A DNA stretch of 64,000 nt from an uncultured Alphaproteobacteria bacterium (GCA_963741505.1 CAVUIJ010000008.1:17114-81113), one strand, 5' to 3'; positions 46,259 through 63,949 are shown, counted from the first letter of the stretch. A program made the numbers and translations. The notes: generated from the letters alone by a model not told the origin.

Positions 46259-46413
46259 GCGCGGCTCAGAATCGGATGAGGGCGCTATACTACCGTCGGC
46301 GCTGGCCGTTCATCTCGGGAGTGTGGCAACGCAGATACTGAGCTGTAGTCGCACTATGTTAGAGAGTGTTAAGATGATTCTATGCCGCGCGGACTAGGAA
46401 CGAAGGATTGAGA

Positions 46414-47598
46414 ATGGCGGGTATGCCGCTCACATTTCTGAAATCCAAGTTTTTTCGTGGCGCGGCTGCTGCAGCGATCGCGCTGGCGTTGTTGAGCGCA
46501 TGCACAAGGCTGGAGTTGGAGCCGGCCGCGCCGGGCGGGCCGCTGGAGCGCGCCGAGTCGGCCAAGCCCTTGGTCTACCCGCCGGCGCCGGCCGCTGTGC
46601 GCTTCATTCACGAGGCGACGATTCTGAGCAGCGCCGATGTGATTCCCGAGACCAACGCCGACCGCGTTCGGCTGTTCGCCACGGGCTTTGGCCGCACGGC
46701 CGAGGCGTTCGGAAAGCCGTTCGGGCTGGTCGCCCGCCACGGCCGGCTCTATGTGAGCGACACGGTGCGGCGGCTTGTTCATGTGCTCGACCGGGCGAAC
46801 GGCGAATATCGCCAGATCGGGACTCAGGAGCCCGGCCGCCTCACCAAGCCCTTGGGGCTGGCCGTCGACGACGGCGGGAGGTTGTATGTCAGTGACGTGA
46901 CCACCCGGCGGATACTGATCTATGACGCTGGCGGCGCATTTGTCGCAGCGGTTGGCGGGCCCAAAGATCTGACGCGCCCGTCTTCGGTCACCGTCTCGCC
47001 GGATGGCTCGCGGATCTACGTGCTGGACACCGGCGGCGTCGACAATAATCAACATCGCATCGTGGTATTCGACGCTGCGGGTCGGCGCGTGAACGTGATC
47101 GGTAAGCGCGGCGGGGGCGCGGGGGAATTCAACCTGCCGCTGGCTATCGAGCGCGCGCCCGACGGCGGGCTGTATGTCGTCGATACTGGCAATTTCAGAG
47201 TGCAAAAGCTGAGTGCCGATGGCGCGCCTTTGTCGGGTTTCGGCAAGCCGGGCCGTTATCCCGGACAGTTCGGGCACCCCAAGGATCTCGCGCTCGACGC
47301 CGACGGAAACATCTATGTCACCGACGCCAGCTTCGGCGTGTTCCAGATATTCAACTCGTCCGGTCGCATCCTGCTTTCGATCGGCGAGCGCAACGAGCAA
47401 GGCGGGCGCGGGCGGTTCCTGCTGCCTGCGGGCATTGACGTCGACGTTGATGGGCGTGTTTATGTTGCCGATCAGTACTTTAGGAAGATCGAGGTATTTC
47501 GACCCGCCTCGCTCCCAGCGTCGACCCCTCCGGGGGGACGGGTGGCGGCGATGCGCGCGGGAATTGCCGAGAAATCAGTCACGTTCCAGCCAAAATGA
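46414..47598 (+). CDS. NHL-repeat six-bladed beta-propeller lipoprotein
   Basis: Lipobox ALLSAC. Repeated (K)P.G(L/V)A(V/L)D..G.(L/I)YV(S/V/T)D modules, e.g. GRLYVSDT, GRLYVSDV, SRIYVLDT, GGLYVVDT, GNIYVTDA, GRVYVADQ. Confidence 0.85.
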   Translation: MAGMPLTFLKSKFFRGAAAAAIALALLSACTRLELEPAAPGGPLERAESAKPLVYPPAPAAVRFIHEATILSSADVIPETNADRVRLFATGFGRTAEAFGKPFGLVARHGRLYVSDTVRRLVHVLDRANGEYRQIGTQEPGRLTKPLGLAVDDGGRLYVSDVTTRRILIYDAGGAFVAAVGGPKDLTRPSSVTVSPDGSRIYVLDTGGVDNNQHRIVVFDAAGRRVNVIGKRGGGAGEFNLPLAIERAPDGGLYVVDTGNFRVQKLSADGAPLSGFGKPGRYPGQFGHPKDLALDADGNIYVTDASFGVFQIFNSSGRILLSIGERNEQGGRGRFLLPAGIDVDVDGRVYVADQYFRKIEVFRPASLPASTPPGGRVAAMRAGIAEKSVTFQPK

Positions 47599-47614: not shown

Positions 47615-48388
47615 ATGCGAGTGGAAAGAAGGGCGCGTTTGACGCGATCCGGCGCGGTCGTGGGCCTACTGCTTGTCGCTGCCGTCGCTTGGTCCGATCT
47701 CGCAGGGGCTCAGAGCGGCATCCGGGGCTCCAAGCACGACCTCGGCAATGGCCAGAACGACAATTACGAGGTCTGCGTCTACTGCCATACGCCCCATGGC
47801 GCCAACAGGGAAGTCGACGCGCCGCTGTGGAACAAGCCGGGCGGCGTGCAGGCATATCGCACTTATGACAGCGCCACGATTGACGGCAAGATCTTGCCCG
47901 TCGGATCGGTTTCCACCGCCTGCCTGTCGTGTCATGACGGCACTCAGGCGATGGACACGGTGATAAATGCGCCGGGCAGCGGCCTCGGTAGAGGCCGCAT
48001 CGGCTCGGGCGTCGGCGCGCTCAGCCCGAACGTCATCGCCAATCTCGGCGTCGATCTGCGCAACGACCATCCGGTGGGCGTGCAGTATGGCGGTTTCGAC
48101 CCAGGCCGCGGCCAGATCGATCCGGACTTCGTCAACAGAGCTACCGGCCTGCAATCCGCGCTTATGCTCGGGCGCATGCGTTGGTGGGTCGACACGGAAC
48201 GCGTCCCGAACGGGAATCGGGACAAGACCGACATGATCCTCTACACACGCAGCGTCGATGGCGTCGACCAACCGTTCGTGGAATGCGCCACCTGCCACGA
48301 TCCGCATCGCGGCTCGGGCACCAATCCGGCGTTCATGCGGCTCACCAACAAGGGCAGTAATCTGTGTCTGTCCTGCCATATCAAGTGA
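47615..48388 (+). CDS. periplasmic tetrahaem cytochrome c (SKHDL...CxxCHTPH type)
   Basis: Signal then GSKHDLGNG..YEVCVYCHTPH, CLSCHDG, NDHPVGVQY, VECATCHDPH, LCLSCH (4 CXXCH). Confidence 0.85.
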   Translation: MRVERRARLTRSGAVVGLLLVAAVAWSDLAGAQSGIRGSKHDLGNGQNDNYEVCVYCHTPHGANREVDAPLWNKPGGVQAYRTYDSATIDGKILPVGSVSTACLSCHDGTQAMDTVINAPGSGLGRGRIGSGVGALSPNVIANLGVDLRNDHPVGVQYGGFDPGRGQIDPDFVNRATGLQSALMLGRMRWWVDTERVPNGNRDKTDMILYTRSVDGVDQPFVECATCHDPHRGSGTNPAFMRLTNKGSNLCLSCHIK

Positions 48389-49386
48389 GTGCGAGGCCGA
48401 GGCGCACGCATGTATTGAAGACGGCCTGGTGCGGCGTCCTGGCCCTGGCTGCGGCTCTGACCGCGGTGCCTGCGCTCGCCACCGAGCAGCAGAAATTGGT
48501 GATCGCACGCGTTAACGACCAGCCAGTCACCGGCGGGGACTTCGCGCCGTATCTGCGCGCCTACTTGCGCTCCAAGCTCTATCACTCGGGCTCACCCGAG
48601 CGCACACGCGCGCTCGCCGAGGAGGCCATCGACGCTTTCCTGATCGATCGGGTGCTGACTGAGCAGGCCGCCGCGCAAGGGCTGAAAATCGGCGAGGCCG
48701 AGGTCGAAAAGCGCCTTGCGGACATCAAGACCCGGTTCGGCGACCGGCCCGAGTGGCCCGAAATCGCATCACGCCTGCCGAAGCTGCGCGAGGAGATCGA
48801 GACGGATTTGCGGATCGAGGCCCTCAAGCGCGAAATAAGCCGCGCCGATCCGCCGACCGAGGCGGAGATCCGCGCATTCTACGAGAGCCAACCCGAGCTG
48901 TTCACCCGCCCGGCGGCCTATCGGCTCAAGCTGCTGCTGATTGCCGTGGAGCCGGGAGCGAGCGCAGAAGCCTGGCGCGCCGCCGAGGTACAGGCACAGG
49001 AATATGCGCGTAGGGTCGCGGCAGGCGAGGACTTCGCCGCGCTTGCGCGCGCTACTTCGAAGCACAGCTTGGCCGAACTGGGCGGCGCGACCGGCCTCGT
49101 CCATGAGGGCCAGTTGGGCGAGGCGGCCGAGGCCGCGCTGCGCCCCGCCAAACCCGGAGAGGTGGCCGGACCCGTCCGTCTGCTGGAGGGCGTCGCCCTT
49201 TTTGCTGTCGAGGAAAAACGTCTTCCGACACTCATGCCGTTGCCCGAGGTAAAAGAACGCGCCTCGATATTGATGGAACGCGATCGAGCGAAAAAGCAGT
49301 GGAATAGCTTCGTAGAAACAATAAGAGGGAAATTCTCCATCGATAGGTCTGCATTTGCGGAGTTTCTCGCAGGCGCCCTCAGGTAA
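48385..49386 (+). CDS. SurA/PpiC-type peptidyl-prolyl isomerase / periplasmic chaperone
   Basis: Signal AWCGVLALAAALTAVPALA, a SurA-N-like helical region, and a rotamase-like block LLLIAVEPGASAEAW..A..YARRVAAGEDFAALA. The GTG start overlaps the upstream TGA. Confidence 0.65.
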   Translation: MSARPRRTHVLKTAWCGVLALAAALTAVPALATEQQKLVIARVNDQPVTGGDFAPYLRAYLRSKLYHSGSPERTRALAEEAIDAFLIDRVLTEQAAAQGLKIGEAEVEKRLADIKTRFGDRPEWPEIASRLPKLREEIETDLRIEALKREISRADPPTEAEIRAFYESQPELFTRPAAYRLKLLLIAVEPGASAEAWRAAEVQAQEYARRVAAGEDFAALARATSKHSLAELGGATGLVHEGQLGEAAEAALRPAKPGEVAGPVRLLEGVALFAVEEKRLPTLMPLPEVKERASILMERDRAKKQWNSFVETIRGKFSIDRSAFAEFLAGALR

Positions 49387-49481
49387 GCACTAGGCAGACT
49401 GGCGATGCTTAGCGGCAGGCTCTCGGAAGGGCGGATACGAAGAAGCAGACAGTCCGGCTGCGGGCGTATTATCGTAGCGCG

Positions 49482-49779
49482 ATGCGTTGCGTCGTGTGCC
49501 CGAACCAGTCGATCGACGATTCCAGTGCGCCGCTGGCGAAAGATCTGCGTGTCTTGATTCGCGACCGGCTGACGGCCGGAGCAGAGCGACACGCAAGCCC
49601 ACGCGTTCATCGTCGCGCGATACGGAAACTTTGTATTGTTGAAGCCGCCGGTTCCAATGAACACTCTGTTTCTCCGGTTCGCTCCAGCGCTTCTCGCTGC
49701 GGGTGTGCTATTTGGACTGTTGCGCTTCCTGCGCCACCAGCAATCATTCTTGCCCGGCGCATCCGGGATTCGGCCCTGA
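49482..49779 (+). pseudogene. ccmH: CcmH/CycL-like cytochrome c maturation thiol-oxidoreductase, frame-broken, no signal peptide found
   Basis: [32 protein letters not shown] (LRCxxC motif) continues after an extra base near 49581 as [47 protein letters not shown]. Confidence 0.7.
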
Positions 49780-49852
49780 CGAGTGCTGCCGAAGAATTGA
49801 CCGCGGAAGAAAACGAGCGCCAGCGGGAGATCTTGGAGAAAGGCATTTAGTC

Positions 49853-51196
49853 ATGAACCTGTGGATCATCCTGACGGCAATAACGACCGTTGTCGCGGTG
49901 TGGGCGGTAATCCCGTTCCTGCGTCGTGCCGACGCGGCTGAACCTTCGAACGAGCTCGCGAAGAGTTCCGCCGTTTATCGCGATCGACTGCGCCAGATCG
50001 ATGCTGAATTGAAGGCCGGTGTCATCAACGAAGCAGACGTGCAGGCCACAAGAGTTGAGACGGCTGGTCGCCTCGTTCTCGCCGAACGCGAAGAACAGGC
50101 AAAGGCCGGACCGGCGCAAATGGGCAATCGCAGTTTTGCAGCCATCGCCATTGTCGGCGTAGTCGCCGTGAGCTCCGCCATTCTCTATGCCAAGATCAAC
50201 CAGCCCAGCCGCATTCCAACTGCACGGAACGCTGACGATGTGCTCGCTGGCAACAGGGGAGCACTGCCCGCTCGTCACCCTGTGATCTCGGGTAACGCCG
50301 CGCGCACGCAGCCATCGGGCGCCGCGGACGCGCAAGGTGGCGGCCTTCCGACCATCGAGGGAATGATCGAGAGACTGGCGCAGCGCCTCAAGGCCAATCC
50401 GGAAGACGCGAATGGCTGGCGCACACTCGCCTGGTCGTATGGGGCGCAAGGGCGGTTCAAGGAGGCGGCATCGGCCTACGATGAGGCTATCAAGCGTCAG
50501 CCCGAAAATGGCGACCTGTATGGTGCCCGCGGTGAGCTTCTGGTGCGTGTCGGCAATGGCATCGTTTCTCTCGAGGCCGCCAATTTGTTCGAGGAGGCAC
50601 TCAAGCGCGACAAGGAGAACCCGCGCGCCCGTTTCTTCCTGGGGCTCAGGAAGGAACAAGCCGGCGATCGCGTGGCTGCACTCGATGATTGGATCGCAAT
50701 CCTCCGGCGCGCGTCACCGAGCGAGCCCTGGGTCCGCGATCTCAGGGAGCGTGTCGAACAAACGGCCGCGGAGATCAAAGTCGATCTGACCGGCCGGCTG
50801 CCGGCTGAGTGGCCGGCGGCGCAGATCGGAGGCGTCGGAGCGGGCATTCCGGGAGTGCTCCAAGAGGAGAAAAGGTCCGGATCACAACCGGGGGCACCAG
50901 CGGGCGCGAACATCTCCGGCTCGAAAGCTCCCACGGCGGCGGACGGCCAGCGCATGGCAGCCGCGAGCCCCGAGGACCAAATGATCCGCAACATGGTTGA
51001 CGGCTTGGCTGCCCGCCTCGAAAAGCAGCCGCGCGATTTCGAAGGTTGGTCCCGCCTTATCCGCTCACGCACGGTTCTGGGCGAGATGGACAAGGCCAAG
51101 ACCGCACTGGCCAAGGCCCGTGAGGTTTTCGCAGATACGCCCGAGGCGCTTGGCGTGATCAGCGCAACGGCACGCGAAATCGGGCTCGAACCTTAG
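49853..51196 (+). CDS. ccmI: CcmI/CycH-like c-type cytochrome biogenesis protein (TM + TPR)
   Basis: MNLWIILTAITTVVAVWAVIPFLRR, a second TM FAAIAIVGVVAVSSAILY, and TPR-like ANGWRTLAWSYGAQGRFKEAASAYDEAIK. Confidence 0.75.
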   Translation: MNLWIILTAITTVVAVWAVIPFLRRADAAEPSNELAKSSAVYRDRLRQIDAELKAGVINEADVQATRVETAGRLVLAEREEQAKAGPAQMGNRSFAAIAIVGVVAVSSAILYAKINQPSRIPTARNADDVLAGNRGALPARHPVISGNAARTQPSGAADAQGGGLPTIEGMIERLAQRLKANPEDANGWRTLAWSYGAQGRFKEAASAYDEAIKRQPENGDLYGARGELLVRVGNGIVSLEAANLFEEALKRDKENPRARFFLGLRKEQAGDRVAALDDWIAILRRASPSEPWVRDLRERVEQTAAEIKVDLTGRLPAEWPAAQIGGVGAGIPGVLQEEKRSGSQPGAPAGANISGSKAPTAADGQRMAAASPEDQMIRNMVDGLAARLEKQPRDFEGWSRLIRSRTVLGEMDKAKTALAKAREVFADTPEALGVISATAREIGLEP

Positions 51197-51465
51197 CCGG
51201 CACGCGAGGCGCCGACACAATCTTGGATTGCGGGAACCGACCGCGCATATCCCGCGACATGATCGAGGTGTCGCGTGAAATCTTAAGAATCAGTTAACGC
51301 TTTTTCGACTGGTCTTGCCGCCATCTGACCAAGCGGGTGACTAGGGTTGCGGCCAAACCACACTCGCGGTCAGCGTTCTATCGGTAGTCTTTTTCTGGTT
51401 GGTCGGGCCACGAATTGGGGGCATCTTGCGTGGAATCGCACGCTAAGTTCGTTTAGGGGGCGGAG

Positions 51466-53316
51466 ATGCTTCGGAGGGGGTGCGTTGGAGGGGGCTTAGT
51501 GAGCGCGCTGCTGCTCACTTGCTGCGCCCTCGATGCACAAGCACAGCCTCCGGTCGAAGTTTCCGGCGAATTGGAAGCCTCGGTGACGTCGCGCAAGCTG
51601 CCCAGCGACGACAAGCACGAGGTCATTTCTCAGGTGCTTGGCAACACCCATATCTCGACCTATCTGTGGCAGCCCTGGATTGCCACGGTGACCGCCGATC
51701 TCCACGCGGCGTTCGAGACCAGTTCCAGCGGAAGCTTCGGCGACGCGACCAGCGTAGCAGGCGATGTTACGCTCTCGGCGCTGCCCTCATCGCGCTATCC
51801 ATTCCAACTTTTTTTCTCTGCGAGCGACAATCGTTTCGACGGCGAATACGCGTTGGACTATACGCGGATGCGAGCGGGGATGTCGGGCCGGGCGGCGCTC
51901 ACCGACAAATCCAGTCTCGACTATCTTGTCAGTTACGACCAGTTGGACCGGGCTAAGTTCGGCGACGTAACCGCGCTGCGCGCAGAAACGACATTTCGCC
52001 ACAGTTTCAGCGTCGGCCAGTTGCCGCTGAACATCACCGACGTCGGCATGTCGTTCAACTACTACAACACGGATTTCAAGAGCGGATTGTCACGGGATCC
52101 GGGCAATTCGAGCGAGTCCGTGGCAGGTACCTTCTTTTATCGCGCGGTGCCGACGGAAAGGATCAATCATGATTTCAGCGCGACCCTGATTTCCGACAAG
52201 TCAATCTACAAGCAGGATCGCTTTGATCGTCTGCTGGCACAAACGGTAGGCACGGCTCAGTGGCGCTCTCCCTCGAACGACTTCACTACCACTAGCGCCG
52301 TGCGCCTGATGTTCCAACAGGTCGACCATCGCTTCGCTCAGGATAAGAAGACGGATACCGATAGCGCCGTAGTGGCCGCGAGTGCGGGCGCAAGCTGGCG
52401 TGCAAACGACCGTCTCACCATGAGCCTCGGCGCGCGCGCCAATTTCGAGCGCATCGAGACCATCGCCGATGAACAGAACATTGTGCAACCCGAGGTGGGC
52501 CGGTCCAATTACGCAGGCGGCATTCTAAGCTCGATCGACTACCGTTCGCTCGCCTATCAGATGGGCGGTTTCAACTGGCACTGGGACGCGCGCGCGGTCG
52601 GGGATCTTTCCTACACCACGAACCGTTACGAAACGAAGCTCTACGAGAGGATTTACGGCCCGCGCAGTGATGCCGCGGTCAGCATCGGCCACTCGTTCGA
52701 TCGGATGATGCGGGTGCCCTGGATCGACAGGGTCAATTTCACTTTTCTTCAGGAAACTGGATTTGCTCACTACGGCTATAATGGAGAGTTCAACCCTTTC
52801 GTCACGCACAGCTCGTCATTCACAAAGGCTTTCTCGGATGAGAATGGAGCGAGTTACTTCCGCCTCTATCTGCGCGACACTCATCGTTTTGGCGACCAGA
52901 CGGACGAATACCAGACCGCACATGCCGATTTCACGCGGCAGATTCCGCTCAGCGGCAACCAGAGCCTTCACGGAAGTGTGGGCATTCAAGTGGTTCGTCA
53001 GCGTACTCAGGGAAGAGAAGATTTCTACGTCTTTTCTCCTGCTGACCTGGAATACGAGTACCGTAACCTGTTCGGTGTCAATGGTTTGAGTTTCACGTCT
53101 ACCGTGCGGATAAATGGGATCGGGCTGAATGATCCAGCGCACGACTGGAGCGACCAGCTGAGCCCGAACCTGTTCCGCAACGATTGGCGCAACCGGGTGC
53201 AGTATCGTGTTGGTGCGCTCTGGCTGTCGCTCGAAGGCACGCTGTTCCAGGTCGATGGAGAGCTGGGGTACTACGCGAGGTTTGCGGGGCGTCGCAGCTT
53301 CGACTTCGTGGACTAG
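51466..53316 (+). CDS. outer-membrane beta-barrel protein candidate (616 aa), no family recognised
   Basis: Signal ..LLLTCCALDAQAQ. Long runs of alternating hydrophobic/polar residues with aromatic girdles (e.g. LDYLVSYDQL, ETTFRHSFSV, GMSFNYYNTDF, RVQYRVGALWLSLEGTLFQV). It is lower in GC than its neighbours. Confidence 0.55.
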   Translation: MLRRGCVGGGLVSALLLTCCALDAQAQPPVEVSGELEASVTSRKLPSDDKHEVISQVLGNTHISTYLWQPWIATVTADLHAAFETSSSGSFGDATSVAGDVTLSALPSSRYPFQLFFSASDNRFDGEYALDYTRMRAGMSGRAALTDKSSLDYLVSYDQLDRAKFGDVTALRAETTFRHSFSVGQLPLNITDVGMSFNYYNTDFKSGLSRDPGNSSESVAGTFFYRAVPTERINHDFSATLISDKSIYKQDRFDRLLAQTVGTAQWRSPSNDFTTTSAVRLMFQQVDHRFAQDKKTDTDSAVVAASAGASWRANDRLTMSLGARANFERIETIADEQNIVQPEVGRSNYAGGILSSIDYRSLAYQMGGFNWHWDARAVGDLSYTTNRYETKLYERIYGPRSDAAVSIGHSFDRMMRVPWIDRVNFTFLQETGFAHYGYNGEFNPFVTHSSSFTKAFSDENGASYFRLYLRDTHRFGDQTDEYQTAHADFTRQIPLSGNQSLHGSVGIQVVRQRTQGREDFYVFSPADLEYEYRNLFGVNGLSFTSTVRINGIGLNDPAHDWSDQLSPNLFRNDWRNRVQYRVGALWLSLEGTLFQVDGELGYYARFAGRRSFDFVD

Positions 53317-53394
53317 GTGCCGTAGAGCACCATTGTTGCGTACAATACCAAGCCTCGTTGGCGCCAGCGGGGTCTCTCGGAGGCCCACTCCCAG

Positions 53395-53960
53395 GCACAT
53401 GCGGGGACGAAGAGAATTGCCGCGCGCTCGTCGTCGTGTGGCGCCGGCCGATAGGCTTCGTGTGCTCGAGCTGCGGGGAAGCCGACCACTCCATCGGCCA
53501 AGTTGCGCGACTTCGAGATGACGTCGGTCAGAGGACGCTCTATCAGTGCAATGTCTGGCGCCGGTAGGCGTTGCCAATGGGCGGCACAATCTCCAACTCG
53601 ACCGAGCTGTCTGTCACGACGTCGTTCAGTGTCTTGCACCTCATTGCGCGGTCAAAGCGACGTGTCTCCTCGATCGAACTCGGCCGCGGCCCGGCACGGC
53701 GCAGACGGTGGCCTGGAAGATCAAGACCAAGCTCGCCGTGGTGATGCGCAACGGCTGCCTGCGGTGAGCACCGCCTTGTCGGATTGCCTTGGATCGCTGA
53801 GGCTCCCGCTGCACGTAGCTCGAGATGGGCGGGAATGTGACCACGATGGCGGATTTGGACAAAAGAGGCTCGAAGCGGCGGCACAAGCGATCAAGTCGTT
53901 CTCGCAAAACGGCTTTCTCTCAGCCGGCGCCCCGACGCTCCTCGCATGCGGGAGAAATTC
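53395..53960 (+). mobile_element. IS1595-family (ISXO2-like) transposase remnant with multiple frame breaks
   Basis: Zinc-ribbon N-terminus DEENCRALVVVWRRPIGFVCSSCGEA...YQC, then ..SVLHLIARSKRRVSSIEL.. and ..TVAWKIKTKLAVVM.. in other frames. This matches the RWP.GF.CP.CG / YQC / KTAW...K order. Confidence 0.5.
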
Positions 53961-53963
53961 AGC

Positions 53964-54340
53964 CTAGACCGACCTTCTCGCAGGGGTGGGGATCGTCATC
54001 GCACGAGCGTCAGTCGATCCGCGTCGTGCGACTGCACGCGAGGCGTGACGAGCGCGCCGAAAAGCGTAGCCCCCGCATACGGTTGAGGCGCGCGACATGC
54101 TGGAAGCATGCGTCCCGCATGACGCGGGCGGCCACGGGCGTGCGACCCGAAGGGCGGGGCAAATTCGTTTGACAGGGTGCGTCGCGACGTCCGGCCCGGA
54201 TGGGCCAAAGCCGGCAATGCCGGCTCGCGCGCCTTCGGCGCAGGGTGACCATAGATCGGCTATGCTCTGCGCGCCGCTCCTGCCCTGTCAAACGAATTTG
54301 CCGCCGTGCCGACCCCGCCCCTGTGAGAAGGTCGGTCTAG
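53964..54340. mobile_element. MITE-like element: nested inverted repeats
   Basis: Outer IR ctagaccgaccttctcgcaggggtgggg (53964-53991) versus the reverse complement of 54313-54340 (26/28). Inner perfect 20-bp IR ggcaaattcgtttgacaggg (54158-54177) versus 54283-54302. Confidence 0.6.
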
Positions 54341-54924
54341 TTCTTCTCGGCCCTGGCCTTGATCCAAATCTCTGCGCGTCGCTTGGCCTCGGCGATCTGA
54401 TCTGGGGGCATGGACTCGGCTACGATGTCGCGGGCGTTGACCGCCAGCGAGCCCCAATAATGCACGGCGATCTCGTACCATTTGTAGGCTTCGAAAGGAT
54501 CACGTTTGACGCCATGGCCGAAGGCGAAGGAATCCGCCACCTGCAACTGCGCGCCGACATCGCCGGCATCGGCGGCCTTTATGCTCCAAAGAAACGACTT
54601 GGCGAAGTCCTGCTCGACGCCGTGGCCCTCGCGATACATTCGCGCGAGTTCGACGTACGCCTTCTCGAAACCCGCCTCGCCCGAGTTGATCATCAACTCC
54701 TCCGCGGCGGTTTTGCTCGGCGGCTGGACCATCTTGTTCAAATACATGACGCCCAGAACGTACTGCGCCTTCGCATCGCCGCCCTTTGCCAGCGGCAAGA
54801 GCACCTGCGCTGCGGCGTCGAACTCCGCGCGTTCGAACAGCTCTACCCCTTTGTCAAGTTGCGCCCTCGCCGCGCCGGCGAGCATGAATGCGATCGCGAC
54901 GATAAGGGCGAAGCAACGTTTCAT
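54337..54924 (-). CDS. secreted Sel1-repeat (SLR/TPR-like) protein
   Basis: Signal MKRCFALIVAIAFMLAGAARA. Repeats: GDAKAQYVLGVMY, AYVELARMYREGHGVEQDFAKS, GDVGAQLQVADSFAFGHGVKRDPFEAYKWY. Confidence 0.8.
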   Translation of the reverse strand: MKRCFALIVAIAFMLAGAARAQLDKGVELFERAEFDAAAQVLLPLAKGGDAKAQYVLGVMYLNKMVQPPSKTAAEELMINSGEAGFEKAYVELARMYREGHGVEQDFAKSFLWSIKAADAGDVGAQLQVADSFAFGHGVKRDPFEAYKWYEIAVHYWGSLAVNARDIVAESMPPDQIAEAKRRAEIWIKARAEKN

Positions 54925-56072
54925 TTCTCACCCCCTTGTTTGCCATTGAGCGCCGCCTCGATCCCGCGCGGATACCATGTCGCTCCCCCGTAGCCGCCGA
55001 CCCATGCGGATCCCTCCCCAATTGCGATGGCGAACACGCTTGAGACGTTCGGTCCTGATGCATCTACCAGCTTATGGAACGTTCCGCCATCGAACGACGC
55101 AAGCCCCCGATTAGTTCCGATCCAGATCCGACCTCCGCTGATCGCCAGCTCGAATACGTGATTGCCGGGCAAACCGTCCGCCATGGTGAAGCTGCGCCAC
55201 ATCGCGCCGTCAAAACGGCTCAGTCCCGCGCCCCAGGTGCCGGCCCAGACCACGCCCTCGGCGTCGACGGCCAGCGAGACTACGTAGTTGGGATTGTAGG
55301 CCGGCCCGGCGCGCTCCAACCCCTGCTCCTGACGCTGACGCTGGTGGTGGCGCGAGGTCGCCGAGGCCGCCCTGCGCTCCTGATCTTCTCCGGCCACCCG
55401 CTCCCACGGCGCGCCGAGGCCATCGGCATGATTCCAACTTGTCCAGGCGCCGCCCCGGTATCGGGTGAGCCCGCCCTCGGTCGCCAGCCAGACCGCTCCG
55501 TCCGGAGCGGAGGCAAGGCCGTAGACCCAGTCGTTGGCCAGACCGCCCTTGGTGCTGGCAACGGTATGCAGCCGCCATGCGGACGGATCCCCCAACGCGC
55601 CGCCGATCACCTGATTGACGCCGGACCACGTGGCGATCCAAATGTCGCCGCGCACATCGCGCATCACGTCATAGACGAAGCTGTCTCCCAGCCCGTCGGG
55701 GATGTTGTAGTGCGTCCACCCCTGCGTCACCGGGTCCAGGATCGACAGGCCGCCGCCGTACGTGCCGACCCAGATCCGCCCGTCAAGCTTGCCCACATAA
55801 AAGACGCCGTTGGAGAGAAGACCGCTCTTGTTGTCGTAGACGCGCTTCTCTCCGGAGAGATTGTCGAAGCGGATCAGGCCGTCGGAAGTGCCGAGCCAAG
55901 TCAGCTTGCCATCCATGAGCACGTGTTTGACGTTGGCGGAGCCGAAATCGAAGCTGATTGACGAGCGCAGTTCGCCCACCCTCTCTTTCTCCGGCGGCGT
56001 GGCCGCCGCAGTGATCGCGCCGAAGCAAAGGGCAAAGAGGCCAGCGACGCAGTAGGTCGCGCGCGGCCTCAT
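54921..56072 (-). CDS. secreted beta-propeller with two-component-regulator-propeller (Reg_prop) repeats
   Basis: Signal MRPRATYCVAGLFALCFGAITAAA. Repeats of type DGL.(S/N)..V..(V/L)..D..G.(I/V)W(I/V/A)GT..G(L/V)..(F/Y)D. ATGA overlaps at both ends. Confidence 0.75.
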   Translation of the reverse strand: MRPRATYCVAGLFALCFGAITAAATPPEKERVGELRSSISFDFGSANVKHVLMDGKLTWLGTSDGLIRFDNLSGEKRVYDNKSGLLSNGVFYVGKLDGRIWVGTYGGGLSILDPVTQGWTHYNIPDGLGDSFVYDVMRDVRGDIWIATWSGVNQVIGGALGDPSAWRLHTVASTKGGLANDWVYGLASAPDGAVWLATEGGLTRYRGGAWTSWNHADGLGAPWERVAGEDQERRAASATSRHHQRQRQEQGLERAGPAYNPNYVVSLAVDAEGVVWAGTWGAGLSRFDGAMWRSFTMADGLPGNHVFELAISGGRIWIGTNRGLASFDGGTFHKLVDASGPNVSSVFAIAIGEGSAWVGGYGGATWYPRGIEAALNGKQGGEK

Positions 56073-57152
56073 GGGGACGCCTTCGGCGCGATGAGCCGCA
56101 CAACGCCGCCTTTCACCCCGGCGAACACATCGCCGCCGCTGGCAACAGTAAGCGCATAGACATGAGCGGGCGAACGACCGAGATCGTGGCTGGTCCAACG
56201 CGTCCCGTCGAAGCTGGAGACACCCTTGTTGGTGCCGAACCACATGACGCCTTTCTCATCCTGGGCGAGACTGTAGACGATGTCACCTGCCAGCCCGTCT
56301 CGACTGGTATAGTTGGTCCAGATACCCTCTCGCGACAGTAGTGCCGCGCCGCCGCCCCAAAGCCCGAACCAAACGCCCTTGCCCGTCCGGTCGACATGCA
56401 CAGCGAACACGTAGTTCTCATTATAGCTGCTGCCGCCTTCTTTGCCGACGTCGAGGTCATGGCGCGATTTGCGTGCCCAGTCCGGTGTTGGTGCTGGCGG
56501 CTGCGCCCGCGAGATTTGGCGCGCCGAGCCCTTCTGTATGGGTCCAGCTTCGCCACTTTGAGCCGTCGAACATGGAGACGCCGCCCTCGGTGCCGAACCA
56601 GACGCGGCCCTCGGCGTCGATATCGACACCATAGACCCAGTGATTGATCAACTCGTCATGATAGGTGGTAAAGGTGTCGGTCTTCGGGTCGTAGAGATTG
56701 GCGCCGTCCCAGGTGCCGATCCAGACCCGCTGCCGGTCGTCGAAAGCAAAGGCGTAGACCCAATAATCCGCCAGCCCGTGCATGGGAAAGAAGGTGCGCC
56801 ACTTGCCATTCTGCAGCCGCGACGCGCCGCCGGCGTTGGTACCGAACCAGACCGCATTGTCCGGCGCCAGGCCGATGGCGAAGACGTACTCGTTCGCCAA
56901 CCCATCCTTGCGCGTGAAGCGATTGCGCGGATCCATGCTGGTGAGGTCGATCTCCAGCACGCCGTTGGAGGCGCCGACCCAGAGGGAGCGCTGCTTGGCG
57001 TCCACCGCCAGCGAGCGGACATAGCTCTGGTCGCCCAAGCCGTAGAACTCGACCTTGCGGCCGGCGGCCGAGGCCGGCGCGGTTGCCACAATGCAGGCGG
57101 CCAGCAGACAAGTGACACTAACGCCGCAACGATCGAACATAGGCCAAAACAT
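56069..57152 (-). pseudogene. second Reg_prop beta-propeller (paralogue), one frame break
   Basis: ORF 56457-57185 (..DGLANEYVFAIGLAPDNAVWFGTNAGGASRL..) continues in ORF 56069-56632 (..NYVFAVHVDRTGKGVWFGLWGGG..). Break near 56470. Confidence 0.7.
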
Positions 57153-57426
57153 CGAGCAGCTCCCTCCCACGGAGCACCACTTCAAAACCCGGCATCAGGC
57201 CCCTGCCGTATCGCAAGCTGCGCACGAGCGACTGCTCGGGCGCCATCAGCCCGTCGCCTCTGGAGAAATCGGGCGTTCCCGGCATCTGCGGAACGCCGTT
57301 GTTGCCATGACAACGCGCGCAGTGCTCCGCGTAAATCTTACGTCCCTTGAAGTAATCGCCAGCGTGCGCCGGCGCGGCCGAGAAGACAGCGGTCAAAGCG
57401 AGGGCTATAGGCGTGACGCGTTTCAT
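57118..57426 (-). CDS. monohaem class-I cytochrome c
   Basis: Signal MKRVTPIALALTAVFSAAPAHA. GRKIYAEHCARCHGNNG...GLMPGF (Met ligand context). Confidence 0.85.
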   Translation of the reverse strand: MKRVTPIALALTAVFSAAPAHAGDYFKGRKIYAEHCARCHGNNGVPQMPGTPDFSRGDGLMAPEQSLVRSLRYGRGLMPGFEVVLRGRELLDVLAYVRSLRR

Positions 57427-58463
57427 TTCGGCTCCGTTTTCTGACGACCCGCGGTCAGGATCTCCGATACCGTCCGCTCCGCAGCGTCAGCGGGCCATTC
57501 GCGGGCGCCGATGACGCGAGCCAGAACCGCGCCGCTCGAATCCAGGAACAGCGTCTGCGGGTAGGATTCCACCTGGAAGCGCTCGCGCGCAAAGGCACCC
57601 TTGCCGTCCCAGAAATTGCCGAATGATACCCCCGTATCGCGGATGAACTCTCGCGCGAAATCGCGATCCTTGTCAATATTGAGGCCGACAAGACGATAGC
57701 GCTTCGGATCGAGGGCGGCGGCGAAGGCTTGCAGGCTCGGCATTTCTGCGCGGCAGGGACCGCACCAGGAAGCCCAGAAATTCACGATAGAGATCATCCC
57801 TTCGGGAGGGGTCAGCGCATCGGGCGTCTCGGCGATGGCGGGCAGCGGCGCCGGCGCGGGCATGGCGCTCTTCGCCGTGGCAGCTGCGGCATGAGCCTTC
57901 GCAGCCCCGCCGCCTAGCTGCGGTGACTGAGGTTTCGCCGTGGCGGCCGCGGCATGGGCCTTCGCGGCATCGTCACCTTGCTGCGGCACCTCGCCCTTGT
58001 CGGCGGCCTCCCATTCCCATAGCGCCGAAAGCGCCTTGCGCCGGAAAGGATCGTCCTTGGCGGCGAGATGGACGAAGGTCCGCATGGCGCCCATCGCGCC
58101 TTTGCGATCGCCTGCGGCCTCGAGCGCCGCGCCAAGCCCGTAATAGGCGTTGATCTGTCGGGGATTGATGGTCAGCGCGCGGTCGAATGCGCTCGCCGCC
58201 TCGCTGGCGCGCTCCATCGCCAGATAGGCGAAGCCCAGATTGGCATGCGCCTCGGCGACGTGGGGATTGATGGCGCGGGCCTGGTCGAAGGCTGCCACCG
58301 CCGCTTGGGCGTCGCCGAGGCGCATCGCCTCTATCCCGCGAGTGAAGGCCTGACCAAAAGGAGTTGCGCTATTTGACGCGACCTGCTGCGGCGCGGTCCT
58401 GATCTCGGGGCCGCTGCCTGGCAGGATCTCCAGGATCAGGCCAACCACCAGGATGACCACCAT
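57423..58463 (-). CDS. TPR-domain / TlpA-ResA-like thioredoxin fusion (thiol:disulfide oxidoreductase)
   Basis: N-terminal TM, TPR repeats (AEAHANLGFAYLAMERASEAASAFDRALTINP), an Ala-rich tandem linker, and thioredoxin VNFWASWCGPCRAEMP. Confidence 0.8.
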   Translation of the reverse strand: MVVILVVGLILEILPGSGPEIRTAPQQVASNSATPFGQAFTRGIEAMRLGDAQAAVAAFDQARAINPHVAEAHANLGFAYLAMERASEAASAFDRALTINPRQINAYYGLGAALEAAGDRKGAMGAMRTFVHLAAKDDPFRRKALSALWEWEAADKGEVPQQGDDAAKAHAAAATAKPQSPQLGGGAAKAHAAAATAKSAMPAPAPLPAIAETPDALTPPEGMISIVNFWASWCGPCRAEMPSLQAFAAALDPKRYRLVGLNIDKDRDFAREFIRDTGVSFGNFWDGKGAFARERFQVESYPQTLFLDSSGAVLARVIGAREWPADAAERTVSEILTAGRQKTEPK

Positions 58464-58526
58464 GACTCGACGCAGCCGCCAGCAGGTGCGAGCGGCGGTG
58501 GCGCCGAACTGCGCCCTGTAGCCCCA

Positions 58527-59364
58527 TCAAACCGCTCCCTTATGTGGCGAGGTCGAGATGAACGGCACTCCGAAAAACGTGTAAAACGCCACGCAGAAGA
58601 TTAGAAGACTGAAGATCGCGCCCAACATCGGCCGCGCCGTGCTGCGCGGGCGCAGATGCAGAAACAGCAGCGTCGCGGTCCAGTTCACGAAGGCCCAGCT
58701 TTCCAGCTGATCCCAGGCCCAGTAGCGCTGCCAGGCGTTCTGCGCCCAGGCGGCACCGGCGACCAGCATCAGGCTCTGGAACACCACGGCGATCAGCAAC
58801 AGGCGATAGATATCGGTCTCCAGCGAAGCGGAGTCGGGCAGGCTGGAGAAGCGCATGCCTGAGCGTCTGGCGGCAGAGCAGCACCAGACCCAGTCCGGCG
58901 GCAGGAGTAGCCAGCCCGAGGAAGAACTTGCCGAACGTCACATGGATCGGCAGCCAGATCGTCGCGTAGGTCACGGGCGCCAATGTGTTCTTCACGGGCG
59001 TGAGCCACATCCAGACGGTCAGCACCGCCAGCAGCGGCAGCGTGCAGGCCAGCGCAGGCCGCAGGCGCGGCAGGCTGAGGAACACCACCAAGACAGCCAG
59101 ATGCAGGCTCCAGACATTGCTCGAGAGAACCTCGAACATATCCACATAGGGCCCGTGGCCGAGCCGGATCCACCTATAGGCAATGGCGACCGTGTGAAAC
59201 GTCAGGCCTGCCGCTAGGAGGCCGAAGGTCGCCTGCTGGCGCCCCGTGCGAAATGCGGTCGAGACTATGGAATGCGCCGTCGCCGCCAGGTAGAGCACGA
59301 CGGCGATCCCCAGCATCTGCGCCTCGAACGCAGCTCCGCTTTGCGCAACGACGTCAGGTCCCAT
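58527..59364 (-). pseudogene. ccsA: System II cytochrome c synthase subunit CcsA, one frame break
   Basis: The N-terminal TM part (ORF 58540-59364) joins ORF 58527-58856, which carries the WWD motif GAAWAQNAWQRYWAWDQLESWAF. Break near 58858. Confidence 0.8.
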
Positions 59365-60356
59365 GCTCTGCCTCCGGCACCGGCATTCGGGAGCCGATTG
59401 AAGAACACGGACAGCACGTGGGCCAGCAGCGCAACGCAGGCCATGATGCCGGTCGCGGCGATCCAGTGGTTCAAGGACTGGCCGACAATGGTGTAGCCCA
59501 TCCAGCTGCGCAGCCCGTCATAGCGAAGCTGGGCCGAACCTAGCGCGACGACTTCGCCGACCTGCAATTCGTGGCGCTTTTCGCCGTCGATCAGTACCAG
59601 GCGGCTGTTGACCGGTTTGGAGAATTTCCACGCTTTGTCCTTCTCGAACACCGGTTCGGGCATGTGGAGCCATACCTTCAACGGCTTGGTCGCGCCCGGC
59701 GGGGTCCAGGCAAGGCCCTGCTGGTTGTCGTTGATCGGGTAGGACGGCAAGTGAATCGCCCCGGTCTGCGCCGCGCCGGAGGCGCTCACATAGGTCAGAA
59801 TCGGCGCGAAGCCCTTGTTGTGGGTCGTGTAGAAGCGATAGTCGCCGAAGATCAGCGGCGTGTCATCGCCGACCCGCACCTCGCGCCATGTGCCATCCTG
59901 CTGGGCGATGCGGATCAGGCTCTCCGTCTCGCGCCGTTTCATGCCGGGTGCGTAGGTGATCTCGAATGGGCCCTGCAGGAACTTGACCTCGTTCAGGCGC
60001 AACTGATGCAGCAGCCCGGCCTCCGCCGTCACTGTCGCAGCATCAAACATCGAGCCCTCGGTGACTTCGACGCGACCCGACATCGAGTTCAGCCGATCAA
60101 GGCCGATCACCACGATCAAAGCGACCAACGCCGCGTGCAGGGCGAAGAGCATCGGCAGGCTCTTCAGCCGCGCACTGGTGGCCAGCGCCGCCAGAAGATT
60201 GGCCAGCATCAGCACGAGAGGGAGCACCATCCAGTCGGAGGTCCGGATCGGAAAATAGATACCCGCAATGGCAATGACGCCGCACAGTGCGATCAACGCG
60301 GCAGTTGTCTCTGCCGAGCCGAGGCGGCGGAGCGTGCTTCGGAACGTCTCTTTCAA
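59265..60356 (-). CDS. ccsB: System II cytochrome c biogenesis protein CcsB/ResB-like (exact 3' end uncertain)
   Basis: N-terminal TMs (AALIALCGVIAIAGIYF, MVLPLVLMLANLLAAL, MLFALHAALVALIVVIGL), a large soluble loop and a C-terminal TM HWIAATGIMACVALLAHVL. The last ~100 nt overlap ccsA. Confidence 0.7.
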   Translation of the reverse strand: MKETFRSTLRRLGSAETTAALIALCGVIAIAGIYFPIRTSDWMVLPLVLMLANLLAALATSARLKSLPMLFALHAALVALIVVIGLDRLNSMSGRVEVTEGSMFDAATVTAEAGLLHQLRLNEVKFLQGPFEITYAPGMKRRETESLIRIAQQDGTWREVRVGDDTPLIFGDYRFYTTHNKGFAPILTYVSASGAAQTGAIHLPSYPINDNQQGLAWTPPGATKPLKVWLHMPEPVFEKDKAWKFSKPVNSRLVLIDGEKRHELQVGEVVALGSAQLRYDGLRSWMGYTIVGQSLNHWIAATGIMACVALLAHVLSVFFNRLPNAGAGGRAWDLTSLRKAELRSRRRCWGSPSCSTWRRRRIP

Positions 60357-60366
60357 GGCGCGGTCC

Positions 60367-62845
60367 TCATGGCGGGTTCGCGCAGTTTTCGGAGCTATCC
60401 TTCATCCAGTTCTTGCCGGTCTCGCCATTACCGGGTGGGCCAACGGAGCCGCAATTCTTGTCTTCCCAATTGCCGCTCTGGGCAAATGACACGACCTTCA
60501 GCACCGAGCCGAGATAATATGGTCCGTTGGTATAGGGCGCGGTGGTGTTGTTGCGCACCTGCGTGCCAGGTGGCAGGCCTCCCTCCGGACCCACATCGTT
60601 CAGGTTCACGAGGAACGCCTTGTTCTTCCAGCCGTGGGGCACGGCAACGTGGCACCAGGTGCACTGCATGCGACCGATCTTGTCGGCATGGAAGGCGTGC
60701 AAGTTCTTCTTGCTGCCGCTGCTCTTGTCCGAGAAGCCGCTCCTGAAGTCCTCGCCCGCCTTCGTCGCATAGCGCTCGTAGACGTGGCACTTGAAGCAGA
60801 TGTCGTTTTCGGTGCCGGGCGCGCCAGTCCGTGCGGTGAGGCCGCCTTTCAGAATGAAGTTGTTGTTGGAGCCGTGCGGACCCCAGGAGCGGCCGTTCTC
60901 GCCGCCCTGCGGAACGATGGTGCCGGGCGCGGTCTCCGAACCGTGGCAGTCCGAGCAATACATGGTCTGCACGCCGATCTGGTCCGGCTGGTTCCAGGGC
61001 GGCAGCCAGAGGTTCGGATTGACGGGGTCGCCGGGGCCGCCGCGGATCGCGAGCGTGCGCCCGGTCGCCTCCATCACTGGATGCCAGGATCGGTGTTCGG
61101 AAACCGTAACGCTGCCGCCGGAGACGCCCGAGCCGCTGATGACCTTCGTCGGCTCGCCCCGGTCGGCGAGCGGCGCCTGGAACTCCATGGCTTGGTCGGT
61201 GTAGCGCCGCACAGCATTGGTTCCCGGCGGCGTGCCGCCCCGGCTCTGGCCCAGTTCAGGTGGCCGGATGTAGCCGTAGGTGGAGTGGCATTTCAGGCAG
61301 ACCTGATACTCGCGCGTGACCCAGGGCGCGGAGGCTGCGGTGGAGCCGCCCACCGGCGGGTTGCCACGCTTGACATTGAAGACCACAGGCGGGCTCAGGA
61401 ATTGGGGCGAGCCGTAGACCGGCTCGACGCCCCAGCTTCCGCGTAACACACCCGAGGCGATGTTGGTCTGCGGCACGCCCGGGCTACGGTCGCGCGTGCC
61501 CACCAAGTCGGGAACCGTAGGCGGAGCGTTGAAGATCCGGTTGCGGATCACGCGATGCGGATTATGGCAATCCGTGCACTCCACGTGGCGGTTGCGATCA
61601 TTGCCCCGGCCCAGCAATTTCCGGCTTTCGATATGGTCCTTGCCAGCTTGCGGCTCAGAGCCGGTGCCGATGTCATGCACTTCCGGTCGTTCATCGATCG
61701 GCATGCGCCGCAGGCTCTGGAAGTCCCGCTTGATGTCCGGAACGCTCGAGCCCGGCGATCCCTGGCCGTTCAGCACGTGTTCGGTCGAGGAATGGCATTG
61801 GTAGCAGCCTTCCTCCATGGCCGACTGGCCGCCCTGCTTGGGCGTCGTGACGCTGTCGGTGGCCTCGCGCAACAGCCGCCGGGAACCCTGGACGGTATGT
61901 GTGTCATGGCAGTTCAGGCAGCCGGCGCGCCAGACCGGCATTCCGACCGGAAACTCCCGCAGATTGGCGGCGTTGGCGGAGTAGGTCTCGTTGGCGACCA
62001 AGTTGTTCGCGTGCGCGGAGTCGACCCAGCCTTCCTTGTCGTGGCAGCCGAGGCAAAGCTGGTCACGCTTCTTGTCGAAGAACGGACCGGCAGCCGGCGT
62101 TTCCTGGAAGCGGTTCAGACGCAGGAACTTGATGTTTTCGGGGCCCGTGTCACGGATATGCGGATCGTGACACGAGGTGCATTCCAGCTTGTTGTCCGTC
62201 AGCGGCAAGCGCCGGATGGAGACCGGGCTTGTGCGAGCCCAAGTCTGGCGTGGACGACGGGCGGCGCAGCTCGCCGTCATCGTTCGCCAGCCGGTCGTCA
62301 TAGGTGAATGAGATCGGATGATCGTTAGTCAGATCGGTTCCCAACCGCCGCGTGAAGCCGGTCGAGGCGCCCTCGCCTTCGGGCATCGTTCCGTCCGGCG
62401 CGGTTCTGGAGAGCTTGATGTCCAGGTTCTGGCGCCCCTGGAGCACCAGGATTGAACCGAGCGCGACCGTGCCGTCATGGCACGAGAGGCAGAGCCTGGA
62501 GGAGCCGCCAGGCTGACCTGACCCGGCGGACTCGAACCAGCGCTTGCCCGCGTCGAACGAGGACGACGTGTAGGGCCTGTAGATCGCTCCGGAAAGGCGC
62601 CGGTTCCAGAGCGGCGGCGGCGCCGCTTCGTTAGCGGCGTGCGGCGTGTGGCAGAACACGCAGATCTGGTCTTGCTTGGAGCGCACTTGGCCCGGCCCGG
62701 TGACCGAGAGATTGTGCTTGGTGTTGGCGATGTCCGAAAGACGCTCGGCCAAGGCAGCCCCGAGCAGCGGCGCACAGATGCAGAGTGCGCCGAGCAAGAC
62801 GACCTGAATGCCTTTCAGGGCTCGGAGCAGGAAGCGCGCCGGCAT
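60367..62845 (-). pseudogene. ~826-aa undecahaem cytochrome c (tetrahaem SKHNL module plus a 7-haem extension), one frame break
   Basis: It starts MPARFLLRALKGIQVVLLGAL.. with TKHNLS..ICVFCHTPH, CLSCHDG and NDHPISFTY (ORF 62150-). It continues in ORF 60367-62301 with CTSCH, CLGCH, CLNCH, CYQCH, CTDCH, CLKCH, CSDCH, CFKCH and CTWCH. Break between about 62220 and 62290. Confidence 0.8.
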
Positions 62846-62847
62846 GC

Positions 62848-63949
62848 CTACCCCTCGGAAACTTTGGTAAGTTCTTTGAAGACAACCACTCGTGCCATTG
62901 AACATGTCGGCGACATATACATTCTGTTTGCCGTCTGTCCAAACCCCCGCGGGCAAGTGGAACGGGCCAACTTCGCCGCGGCCCTCGATCGGCAACAGCA
63001 ACTGGCCCTTCGCGTCGAAGACCAGCAGATGGTCGTGTCGCAATTCGACAACGTAGATGCGCCCGTCGCCGCCGACCGCGACGCCCTTGGGCCGCGTGAA
63101 CTGACCGACATAGAGGCCAGCCTTGCCGAAGGTCGTGGGAGCCGCTCCGTTCCCATCGAAGGACTGAACGCGGAAGTTCAGCGTGTCGCTGACGAACAGC
63201 CTTCCGTTGGCGAAGCTGAGATAGGTCGGCGCATTGAAGCGGCCCAGCGCATCGCCCGGCCCGCCGATGGTCGCTAGCAACTCGCCGGATGCGCTGAACT
63301 TCTTGACCACATGCTGGGCCGAATCGGCCACGAAGATTGCGCCGCTGCTCGGATCACGCGCCAGCCCTGTCGGCCGGGTGACAGCGCCGATACCGAAGTC
63401 CCCGCGCGGCTTGCCGTCCTTGCCGAGGCGCACCACCTTGGCGAGTTCGGAATCCGAAACCAGGTAACCGCCCTGGCCGTCTTCGACGACAGCGATCGGC
63501 GATTTGAAGCCGCGGTTATCGCCGGACTGGTCCCAGATCGAGAACGCTTTGTTGGCGAAATCGAAACGGACCAACGCCTTCAGGCCGGCGTCCACCACCA
63601 GCACCGAGCCATCCTCTAGCGTCAGCCCCGACGTCGGCCGCTTCAACTCCTTGTACCTTTGCTCGCCGGTCGCGATGCCCGCGATCGACCGAGCCACGTC
63701 AGTCAGAATGTTGCCGGCGGAACTCTTGCCGGAGACCGTCTGCTCGCCCACCAGCACCGCGCTCAGCCTATAGCGCGCCTTCTCCGGCGGAGCGGGCCAC
63801 TCCAGATTCTTGCTCTGTTCGCTGTCCGCACTCTGTCCGGGCTTCGACAGGCCCGAATTCTCCAGTGAAGTGCATGTAGCAAGCGTCGATAGGCTGACTA
63901 CGGCCCCTCCGACACGAACCAGACGCCACCTCCAATTGAGTCTGCTCAA
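62848..63949 (-). pseudogene. NHL-repeat beta-propeller lipoprotein (paralogue of 46414-47598), frame break 45 nt before its stop
   Basis: Lipobox LSTLATC. Repeats GSVLVVDA, GGYLVSDS, GAIFVADS, GRLFVSDT, GRIYVVEL, QNVYVADM. The natural end ..FNG|RVVVFKELTKVSEG* lies in ORF 62848-63156. An extra A near 62893 fuses it in silico to the cytochrome. Confidence 0.8.

Follow-up and report, generated by a model that had tools for sequence, protein, structure and literature searches.

The stretch analysed here, positions 49482 to 60356 of a 64,000-nucleotide segment from an uncultured Alphaproteobacteria bacterium (GCA_963741505.1, CAVUIJ010000008.1:17114-81113; the whole 64-kb segment is called the window, and gene coordinates are window positions), carries genes of two machineries for c-type cytochrome maturation, System I (ccmH, ccmI) and System II (ccsB, ccsA and a thioredoxin), within a cluster of multihaem cytochromes. 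The analysis covered this window of one genome and about 20 kb per relative locus. The map of open reading frames (ORFs) was guided by G+C content at third codon positions (GC3) and by family scans (Pfam, NCBIfam), and relatives, referred to below by L numbers, were fetched via a CcsB scan of reference genomes, a CcsA homologue search and a CcmI search. On the + strand the order is a trihaem cytochrome c7, a pentahaem protein, an NHL-repeat protein, a tetrahaem cytochrome, a PpiC/SurA isomerase, a CcmH-like gene, CcmI and a 616-aa outer-membrane-type protein; on the - strand it is Sel1, two Reg_prop proteins, a monohaem cytochrome c, a protein joining tetratricopeptide repeats (TPR) to a thioredoxin, CcsA, CcsB, an 11-haem cytochrome and a second NHL protein. 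The maturation genes are a ccmH pseudogene (49482 to 49850, +), an intact ccmI of 447 aa (49853 to 51196, +; two transmembrane (TM) segments plus TPR), the TPR-thioredoxin gene (57423 to 58463, -), ccsA with its WWD domain (58527 to 59364, -) and a compact ccsB/resB of about 333 aa (59354 to 60356, -). Profile scans placed all five in the families, and at the positions, named by the original prediction, which had been made from the sequence alone.

Concerning the System II synthase, CcsA, once a frameshift near 58860 is repaired, reaches 52 bits with PF01578 (cutoff 29.9) and 91 bits with TIGR03144, against 19 bits with CcmC. Its alignment to CcsBA of Helicobacter hepaticus (7S9Y) retains P-His1, the WWD motif, TM-His2 and P-His2, matching H761, the WWD motif, H858 and H897 of that structure, all of them conserved in at least 95% of 121 CcsA family members. 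These scores and this alignment clearly point to a CcsA-type synthase, nearer CcsA than CcmC, and argue against the CcmF or CcmC paralogue that had been thought of as its other possible identity. The stop codon of ccsB overlaps the start of ccsA by 11 nt. CcsB passes PF05140 and keeps a TM histidine, His74, that is invariant in 43 sequences. No match to the PDB was found by sequence, and a fold search was needed: the AlphaFold (AF2) model of CcsB, with a predicted local distance difference test (pLDDT) score of 91, has as its only significant PDB fold matches the CcsBA structures 7S9Y and 7S9Z.

The third System II gene encodes a TPR protein with a thioredoxin fold of the TlpA/ResA/CcmG kind and a WCGPC motif. 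It passes the AhpC-TSA and Redoxin families (PF00578, PF08534) as well as TPR families; of the NCBIfam models TlpA fits best, but its 74 bits fall short of the cutoff, and the ResA and DsbE models also stay below theirs. Its TPR part is matched weakly by the CcmH/CycH TPR family and is here fused to the thioredoxin, and the equivalent position in 'Ca. Tenderia electrophaga' (compared below) and in L013 is occupied by a TPR-only protein. As regards the claim of a complete System II, CcsB, CcsA and the thioredoxin are in place; no CcdA or DsbD was seen among the approximately 45 window ORFs scanned, which were part of the ORFs and not an exhaustive search.

The frame changes met in these genes have to be read against the quality of the assembly. 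The housekeeping gene lepA (region 1990 to 3957) needs two frame changes, an aldehyde dehydrogenase (region 34281 to 35800) needs one, and comparison of the block from 54.3 to 64 kb (about 9.6 kb) with the Illumina metagenome-assembled genome (MAG) L002 exposes five, to which a sixth is added by the CcsB C-terminus, inferred from frame three and borne out by homologues. The window thus carries roughly one indel error per 1 to 2 kb and, since even lepA is frameshifted, frameshifts by themselves prove nothing here. CcmH needs two frame changes and CcsA one; the CcsB ORF, with a C-terminal frameshift near 59400, reads 100 nt into ccsA. The idea that frameshifts mark CcsA and CcsB as decaying genes was dropped given the state of lepA and the existence of intact orthologues at 93 to 99% identity. 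CcsA is intact, with 278 aa, in an independent assembly (protein P0123, 99% identical to window CcsA), and CcsB relatives at 89 to 93% identity have 333 to 338 aa and end in ...PVPEAEHGA, an ending that the third frame of the window restores. Judging from these homologues, CcsA and CcsB are intact genes in the lineage and the frameshifts in the window are assembly errors.

At every locus where this System II was found, it lies with the cytochrome cluster. The CcsB scan returned three Hyphomicrobiaceae or alphaproteobacterial MAGs (L001, L002 and L003), in which the block NHL, undecahaem cytochrome, CcsB, CcsA, TPR/thioredoxin, cytochrome c, propeller, propeller, Sel1 is kept at 70 to 88% amino acid identity. 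The CcsA homologue search reached a wider clade at 42 to 60% identity, including the long contigs L011 and L012, which hold the whole operon from the isomerase to Sel1 in the same order with CcsA 56% and 48% identical. CcsB-CcsA-thioredoxin lies directly downstream of the undecahaem gene in 5 of 5 alphaproteobacterial relatives, with CcsA identity ranging from 81% down to 48%. In the betaproteobacterial L013 (Aromatoleum sp., a Rhodocyclales MAG) CcsB-CcsA sits inside an equivalent cluster, in which no undecahaem gene was identified. At the loci examined the trio never occurs apart from the cytochrome cluster, so that inheritance of CcsBA independently of the island, the finding that would have told against the original prediction, was not encountered in the five relatives or in L013. 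At its end (16450 to 17994) the L013 cluster carries CcmC, what may be a CcmD, and a thioredoxin resembling CcmG; pieces of System I recur in this way beside such clusters.

The System I genes of the window have a different history. CcmH is recognised by PF03918 at 101 bits only after both its frame changes are repaired, and its N-terminal signal and anchor region is gone. By blastn, window positions 49252 to 49407 correspond to 6434 to 6588 of L004 and 49485 to 49897 to 9560 to 9972 of the same locus, so that about 2.97 kb of L004 is absent and a scar of 77 unrelated bases (49408 to 49484) stands in its place. The deleted stretch comprises the whole of ccmF and the first approximately 50 codons of ccmH (residues 1 to 56 in L005 numbering), and tblastn with CcmF of L005 and L008 gave no match anywhere in the 64-kb window. 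An independent Joint Genome Institute (JGI) contig, L006, matches the window over 1743 nt with 99% identity and allows error to be told from damage. An extra G near 49581 is not found in L006 and is either a window error or strain-specific; the 1-nt loss near 49765, the premature TGA and the out-of-frame C-terminus are common to both. The CXXC motif reads RCVVC in the window and RYVVC in L006, the first Cys having become Tyr, and the ratio of non-synonymous to synonymous substitution rates (omega) is 0.30 for the ccmH remnant, versus 0.14 to 0.17 among intact ccmH copies. The ccmH of the window is a true pseudogene: its 5' end is deleted, and one of its frameshifts is shared with this independent contig. 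The earlier suspicion that it is defunct, based on a missing signal peptide, was right as to the outcome, although more than a signal peptide is gone. In L006 (1743 to 1974) the identity to the window stops at the ccmI stop codon, with substitutions crowding the last approximately 80 nt of ccmI, which suggests a recombination boundary or another downstream neighbour in that strain.

The same interval, after the PpiC gene, differs among relatives. L016 carries CcmF-CcmG-CcmH-CcmI, L005 and L004 carry CcmF-CcmH-CcmI, the window and L006 hold the truncated ccmH with ccmI, and in L002 and L011 the porin gene follows directly with no ccm genes; a search for remnants of CcmH and CcmI between PpiC and porin in L002, and in the upstream part of L003, gave nothing significant. 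L007 (1 to 260) retains about 95 nt of the ccmH 3' end, preceded by a match to 6756 to 6797 of L004, then an intact ccmI (CcmI 77% identical to that of the window) and the porin gene. L007 keeps left-side sequence that is gone from the window and the window keeps right-side sequence that is gone from L007; with such different breakpoints, the two deletions are independent, and ccmF and most of ccmH have been lost at least twice. The island-type CcmF of relatives is 71 to 74% identical to CcmF of ccmFGHI operons that have no Uet genes around them (L008, L009), Uet standing for undecahaem electron transfer, and their intact CcmF and CcmH together are 61 to 74% identical to the proteins of such operons. 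The intact relatives pass the general CcmF/NrfE model and do not pass the NrfE-specific (655 vs 927 bits) or NrfF-specific (94 vs 159 bits) ones. The view that CcmH and CcmI are a privately recruited pair has to be given up: they are the remnants of a ccmF(G)HI operon still intact in L016, L005 and L004.

CcmI has been spared. It scores 66 bits with TIGR03142 (cutoff 29) and 72 bits with PF23914 (cutoff 42), and the window, L006 and L007 all have its ORF unbroken. For ccmI, omega is 0.25 between the window and L006 (13 substitutions) and 0.28 between the window and L007, compared with 0.22 to 0.25 in lineages that still have CcmFH and 0.18 to 0.27 for other cluster genes; ccmI is under purifying selection despite the loss of CcmFH.

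Several of the remaining genes fit the published uet order, to which the Uet names below refer. On the left, a trihaem cytochrome c7 (UetD/E/G-like; 42309 to 43013, +; PF14522, 3 CXXCH) is 89% identical to positions 19 to 399 of L004 and is followed by a second small c7-type cytochrome with uncertain boundaries (43067 to 43351, +; 54% identity by tblastn with the L004 c7 protein), a pentahaem protein of four class I cytochrome c domains whose start is uncertain (43303 to 45000, +; PF13442 four times, 5 CXXCH) and, on the opposite strand, another trihaem cytochrome c7 (45208 to 45987, -; PF14522, 3 CXXCH). An NHL-repeat beta-propeller (UetH/I-like; 46408 to 47598, +; PF01436 at 89 bits) precedes the tetrahaem cytochrome (UetA-like and in the UetA position; 47615 to 48388, +; 4 CXXCH, PF09699) and the PpiC/SurA-type peptidyl-prolyl isomerase (PPIase; UetB-like; 48364 to 49386, +; PF13145, PF00639). 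Beyond ccmI lies the 616-aa predicted outer-membrane protein (51466 to 53316, +), a UetC-like porin without Pfam match that occupies the UetC position and is 69 to 74% identical to the gene following PpiC/CcmI in L001 and L002.

On the - strand, the operon ends with a Sel1-repeat protein (54337 to 54924; PF08238), whose terminal position is kept in L001 to L003, L011 and L012. Upstream of it are a Reg_prop beta-propeller (54921 to 56243, true start probably near 56072; PF07494, 82% identical to L002), a second one (56072 to 57185) that is one gene split near 56470 by an assembly frameshift and a single 369-aa ORF in L002, and a monohaem class I cytochrome c (57118 to 57426; PF13442, 1 CXXCH). 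Beyond ccsB come the undecahaem cytochrome (UetJ-like; 60367 to 62845, -), split by a frameshift near 62200 into 2 + 9 CXXCH and with all 11 motifs within single ORFs of L002, L011 and L012, and an NHL-repeat protein (UetI-like; 62848 to 63949, -; PF01436) with a frameshift near 62893, which is a separate 373-aa ORF in L002.

This distal block, from Sel1 to NHL (window 53317 to 64000), is inverted relative to the porin gene when compared with L004, L011 and L012, and the porin-NHL interval of relatives, filled by a c7 pair and a pair of unknown genes, must have its counterpart past the window end. The unknown pair are conserved proteins of about 230 to 320 aa, flanked by the c7 pair on one side and the NHL gene on the other (L011 3540 to 5448; L004 15254 to 16880), uncharacterised core components of the cluster, and the L011 copies have no Pfam match. 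At the inversion junction a 377-nt element (53964 to 54340) abuts the Sel1 stop codon; its 28-nt terminal inverted repeats are 93% complementary, and a perfect 20-nt inverted repeat is nested within it (54158 to 54177 and 54283 to 54302). The stretch 53317 to 54336 has no counterpart in any fetched locus. A foreign origin had been proposed for the island, and a recent one finds no direct support: the window holds no tRNA gene, no integrase turned up among the scanned ORFs, the GC content of the cluster is only slightly below that of its flanks, and the cluster is common to a clade of Hyphomicrobiaceae-like MAGs at 48 to 80% identity.

Taking these results together, we consider it about 75% probable that the region is an alphaproteobacterial Uet/Occ-type porin-multihaem-cytochrome cluster with a core System II and a decaying, inserted ccmF(G)HI. 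System II is an integral and probably a dedicated maturation module of this cluster. CcsB-CcsA and the membrane-anchored TPR-thioredoxin are core and probably co-transcribed parts of it, which most likely export haem, hold the apocytochromes' CXXCH thiols in the reduced state and attach the haem, with a dedicated high-capacity maturation line for approximately 30 haem sites as the presumed result. An ordinary alphaproteobacterial ccmF(G)HI lyase operon would have lodged between the uetB-like isomerase and uetC-like porin genes and decayed there, ccmG presumably going first, then ccmF and most of ccmH via the two or more independent deletions. CcmI would probably still work as a TPR chaperone of apocytochromes.

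Several observations weigh against this interpretation. CcsA misses the cutoff of the NCBIfam equivalog TIGR03144 (91 vs 187.6 bits) and CcsB only just passes PF05140 (28.6 vs 24.6 bits), so that the compact proteins appear to be a divergent subfamily in which synthase activity is a prediction. In the WWD motif (window 58620 to 58640) the lineage reads WDQ where 117 of 121 relatives read WDP; the Pro to Gln change is also present in the independent protein P0123 and is hence real, and it is probably tolerated, the H. hepaticus protein having Ser at the same position. All motifs in the tri-, tetra-, penta- and undecahaem proteins are plain CXXCH (neither CX3CH nor CX4CH nor CXXCK was found in the cluster cytochromes), which requires no special synthase, and the clients, supposed to be unusual, are not so at their haem sites. 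The purifying selection on ccmI could in part predate the deletions. The Uet assignment was made by comparing domains and gene order with the published cluster rather than by aligning the proteins with those of Tenderia, and it is by co-location only that CcsBA is tied to the Uet cytochromes it may mature.

The main competing explanation is a system replacement under way, in which ccmF(G)HI was the lineage's only housekeeping lyase and became redundant once the System II of the cluster matured all c-type cytochromes. The graded series from FGHI over FHI, a truncated H with I, and I alone to none, the two independent deletions, and the ordinary alphaproteobacterial type of the lost genes, in the F-G-H-I order of the L008 operon without Uet neighbours, all agree with it, as does a tblastn search with CcmF, CcmG, CcmC and CcmH that returned, over the 64-kb window, only the ccmH remnant and the thioredoxin domain; moreover, CcsBA enzymes are described as generalist synthases (PMC10663686). 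However, an intact ccmI under purifying selection in three lineages without ccmFH is hard to explain if System I is wholly gone, ccmABCDE and a second ccmF could lie elsewhere given a coverage of 64 kb here and about 20 kb per relative, and uetB and uetC are adjacent in the outgroups L011, L013 and Tenderia, so that ccmFGHI looks like an inserted extra copy. We regard replacement as unlikely, though worth keeping in mind; a window of 64 kb is compatible with System II either as an addition to a housekeeping System I or as its replacement. It is quite doubtful, too, that System II came with or within the Uet cluster and took over, the native lyase being deleted in parallel lineages and CcmI being reused by System II.

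It is very improbable that CcmH and CcmI function as accessories of System I, acquired together with System II for special haem sites in the manner of NrfF and NrfG. The F-H-I order of L004 and L005 does mirror nrfEFG, the NrfF model gives a score for CcmH and the NrfG model a weak one for CcmI, and CcmI is intact and constrained; but for CcmH the idea is refuted by the absence of its N-terminal approximately 50 residues, the frameshift seen in two assemblies and the Cys to Tyr change in L006, and the window has no CcmF to serve as its lyase partner, the NrfE- and NrfF-specific models fail, and the clients have no non-standard haem motif. Hardly credible, finally, is the suggestion that all damage in ccmH, ccsA and ccsB is sequencing noise and the five genes are functional: the window is indeed prone to indels (lepA, aldehyde dehydrogenase, the L002 comparison) and the first ccmH frameshift is not in L006, but a loss of about 3 kb with ccmF and the ccmH 5' end is a deletion and no indel error, the independent L006 has exactly the same second ccmH frameshift and early stop, and in L007 these genes were removed by another deletion, distinct from the first.

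The preferred reading, an alphaproteobacterial Uet/Occ-type cluster with its own System II, extends the range of such extracellular-electron-transfer clusters with built-in System II from gamma- and betaproteobacteria to alphaproteobacteria. The compact pair, CcsB of about 333 aa and CcsA of about 270 aa, occurs only inside such clusters in every locus examined, so that the notion of a System II synthase dedicated to particular clients can be tested directly. The parallel loss of CcmF and CcmH with CcmI kept bears on the ability of CcmI to function without the CcmFH lyase, and the same natural experiment bears on how bacteria change maturation systems. A caution also follows for the use of this sequence: several of its apparent pseudogenes are indel errors, independent assemblies alone told decay from noise, and any apparent pseudogene of the window needs confirmation from outside.

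Among known systems, the closest is the uet cluster of Tenderiales, uetABCDEFGHIJ-ccsAB-nrfG-batABD, described in 'Ca. Tenderia electrophaga' with UetA as tetrahaem cytochrome, UetB as PPIase, UetC as beta-barrel, UetD/E/G as c7 cytochromes, UetH/I as NHL proteins and UetJ as undecahaem cytochrome, together with CcsA, CcsB and a TPR/NrfG-like protein (bioRxiv 10.1101/2022.05.06.490989). Its authors remark on this type II system as something uncommon among Gammaproteobacteria and additional to type I, a ten-gene type I operon lying just downstream, and they propose that CcsAB matures the Uet cytochromes (bioRxiv 10.1101/2022.05.06.490989); Uet is also reported from some Gallionella (PMC10734462). 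PCC3 of Gallionellaceae was considered as the closest system and set aside, the literature pointing to Uet instead. The window, L004, L011 and L012 match the published Uet content and order, with the distal block inverted in the window. Both Tenderia and the window have System II in a proteobacterial class that normally uses System I, with System I genes nearby. They differ in that the window host is alphaproteobacterial (Hyphomicrobiaceae-like) and Tenderia gammaproteobacterial, the TPR protein of the window is fused to a thioredoxin domain, its operon ends with cytochrome c, two Reg_prop proteins and Sel1 where that of Tenderia ends with BatABD, the cupredoxin UetF was not seen in the window, and the window-type cluster holds a decaying ccmF(G)HI and, in the window itself, an inverted distal half. 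A dedicated System II for the cluster cytochromes was thus already proposed for the Uet of Tenderiales, and its alphaproteobacterial occurrence is now added; a full-text literature search with UetJ returned only the Gallionellaceae paper and no description of Uet for Alphaproteobacteria.

The occ cluster (occA-S, with the undecahaem OccP) of 'Ca. Dechloromonas occultata' (bioRxiv 10.1101/695007) is similarly rich in cytochromes, with an extracellular undecahaem protein, proteins of six NHL repeats and a PPIase, and it belongs to the Rhodocyclales, the order that the compact CcsB family reaches through the MAG L013. It differs in that no ccs or ResB genes are mentioned in the main text of the occ paper (bioRxiv 10.1101/695007), and the electron flow proposed for occ is Mn(III) reduction, versus electron uptake for Uet. 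With canonical System II (CcsBA/ResBC with ResA/CcsX and CcdA; 7S9Y) the window shares the WWD and His set of CcsA, the TM His and fold of CcsB, and an adjoining CXXC thioredoxin. In contrast, its CcsB is much smaller, with about 333 aa and a reduced periplasmic domain, window-type CcsA has 268 to 278 aa and half the equivalog cutoff score, and where canonical System II is a housekeeping locus the window-type pair always lies within one cytochrome operon, with no CcdA seen among the cluster ORFs scanned.

NrfEFG, the System I lyase for the CXXCK haem of NrfA, resembles the trio of CcmF-CcmH-CcmI type beside presumed multihaem clients in L004 and L005. The trio nevertheless fails the specific models, there is no CXXCK, and in the window it is reduced to a pseudogene and CcmI; a dedicated lyase like NrfEFG was rejected on the NrfE- and NrfF-specific models and the lack of a CXXCK site. 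A last comparison is offered by the ccmA-I operons that travel with mtrCAB, some genomes holding both System I and System II (PMC8805035). There, as here, genes for maturation and an extracellular-electron-transfer module are in physical linkage, but the linked system is a complete System I with System II elsewhere, whereas in the window it is System II that lies inside the module and System I that is fragmentary.

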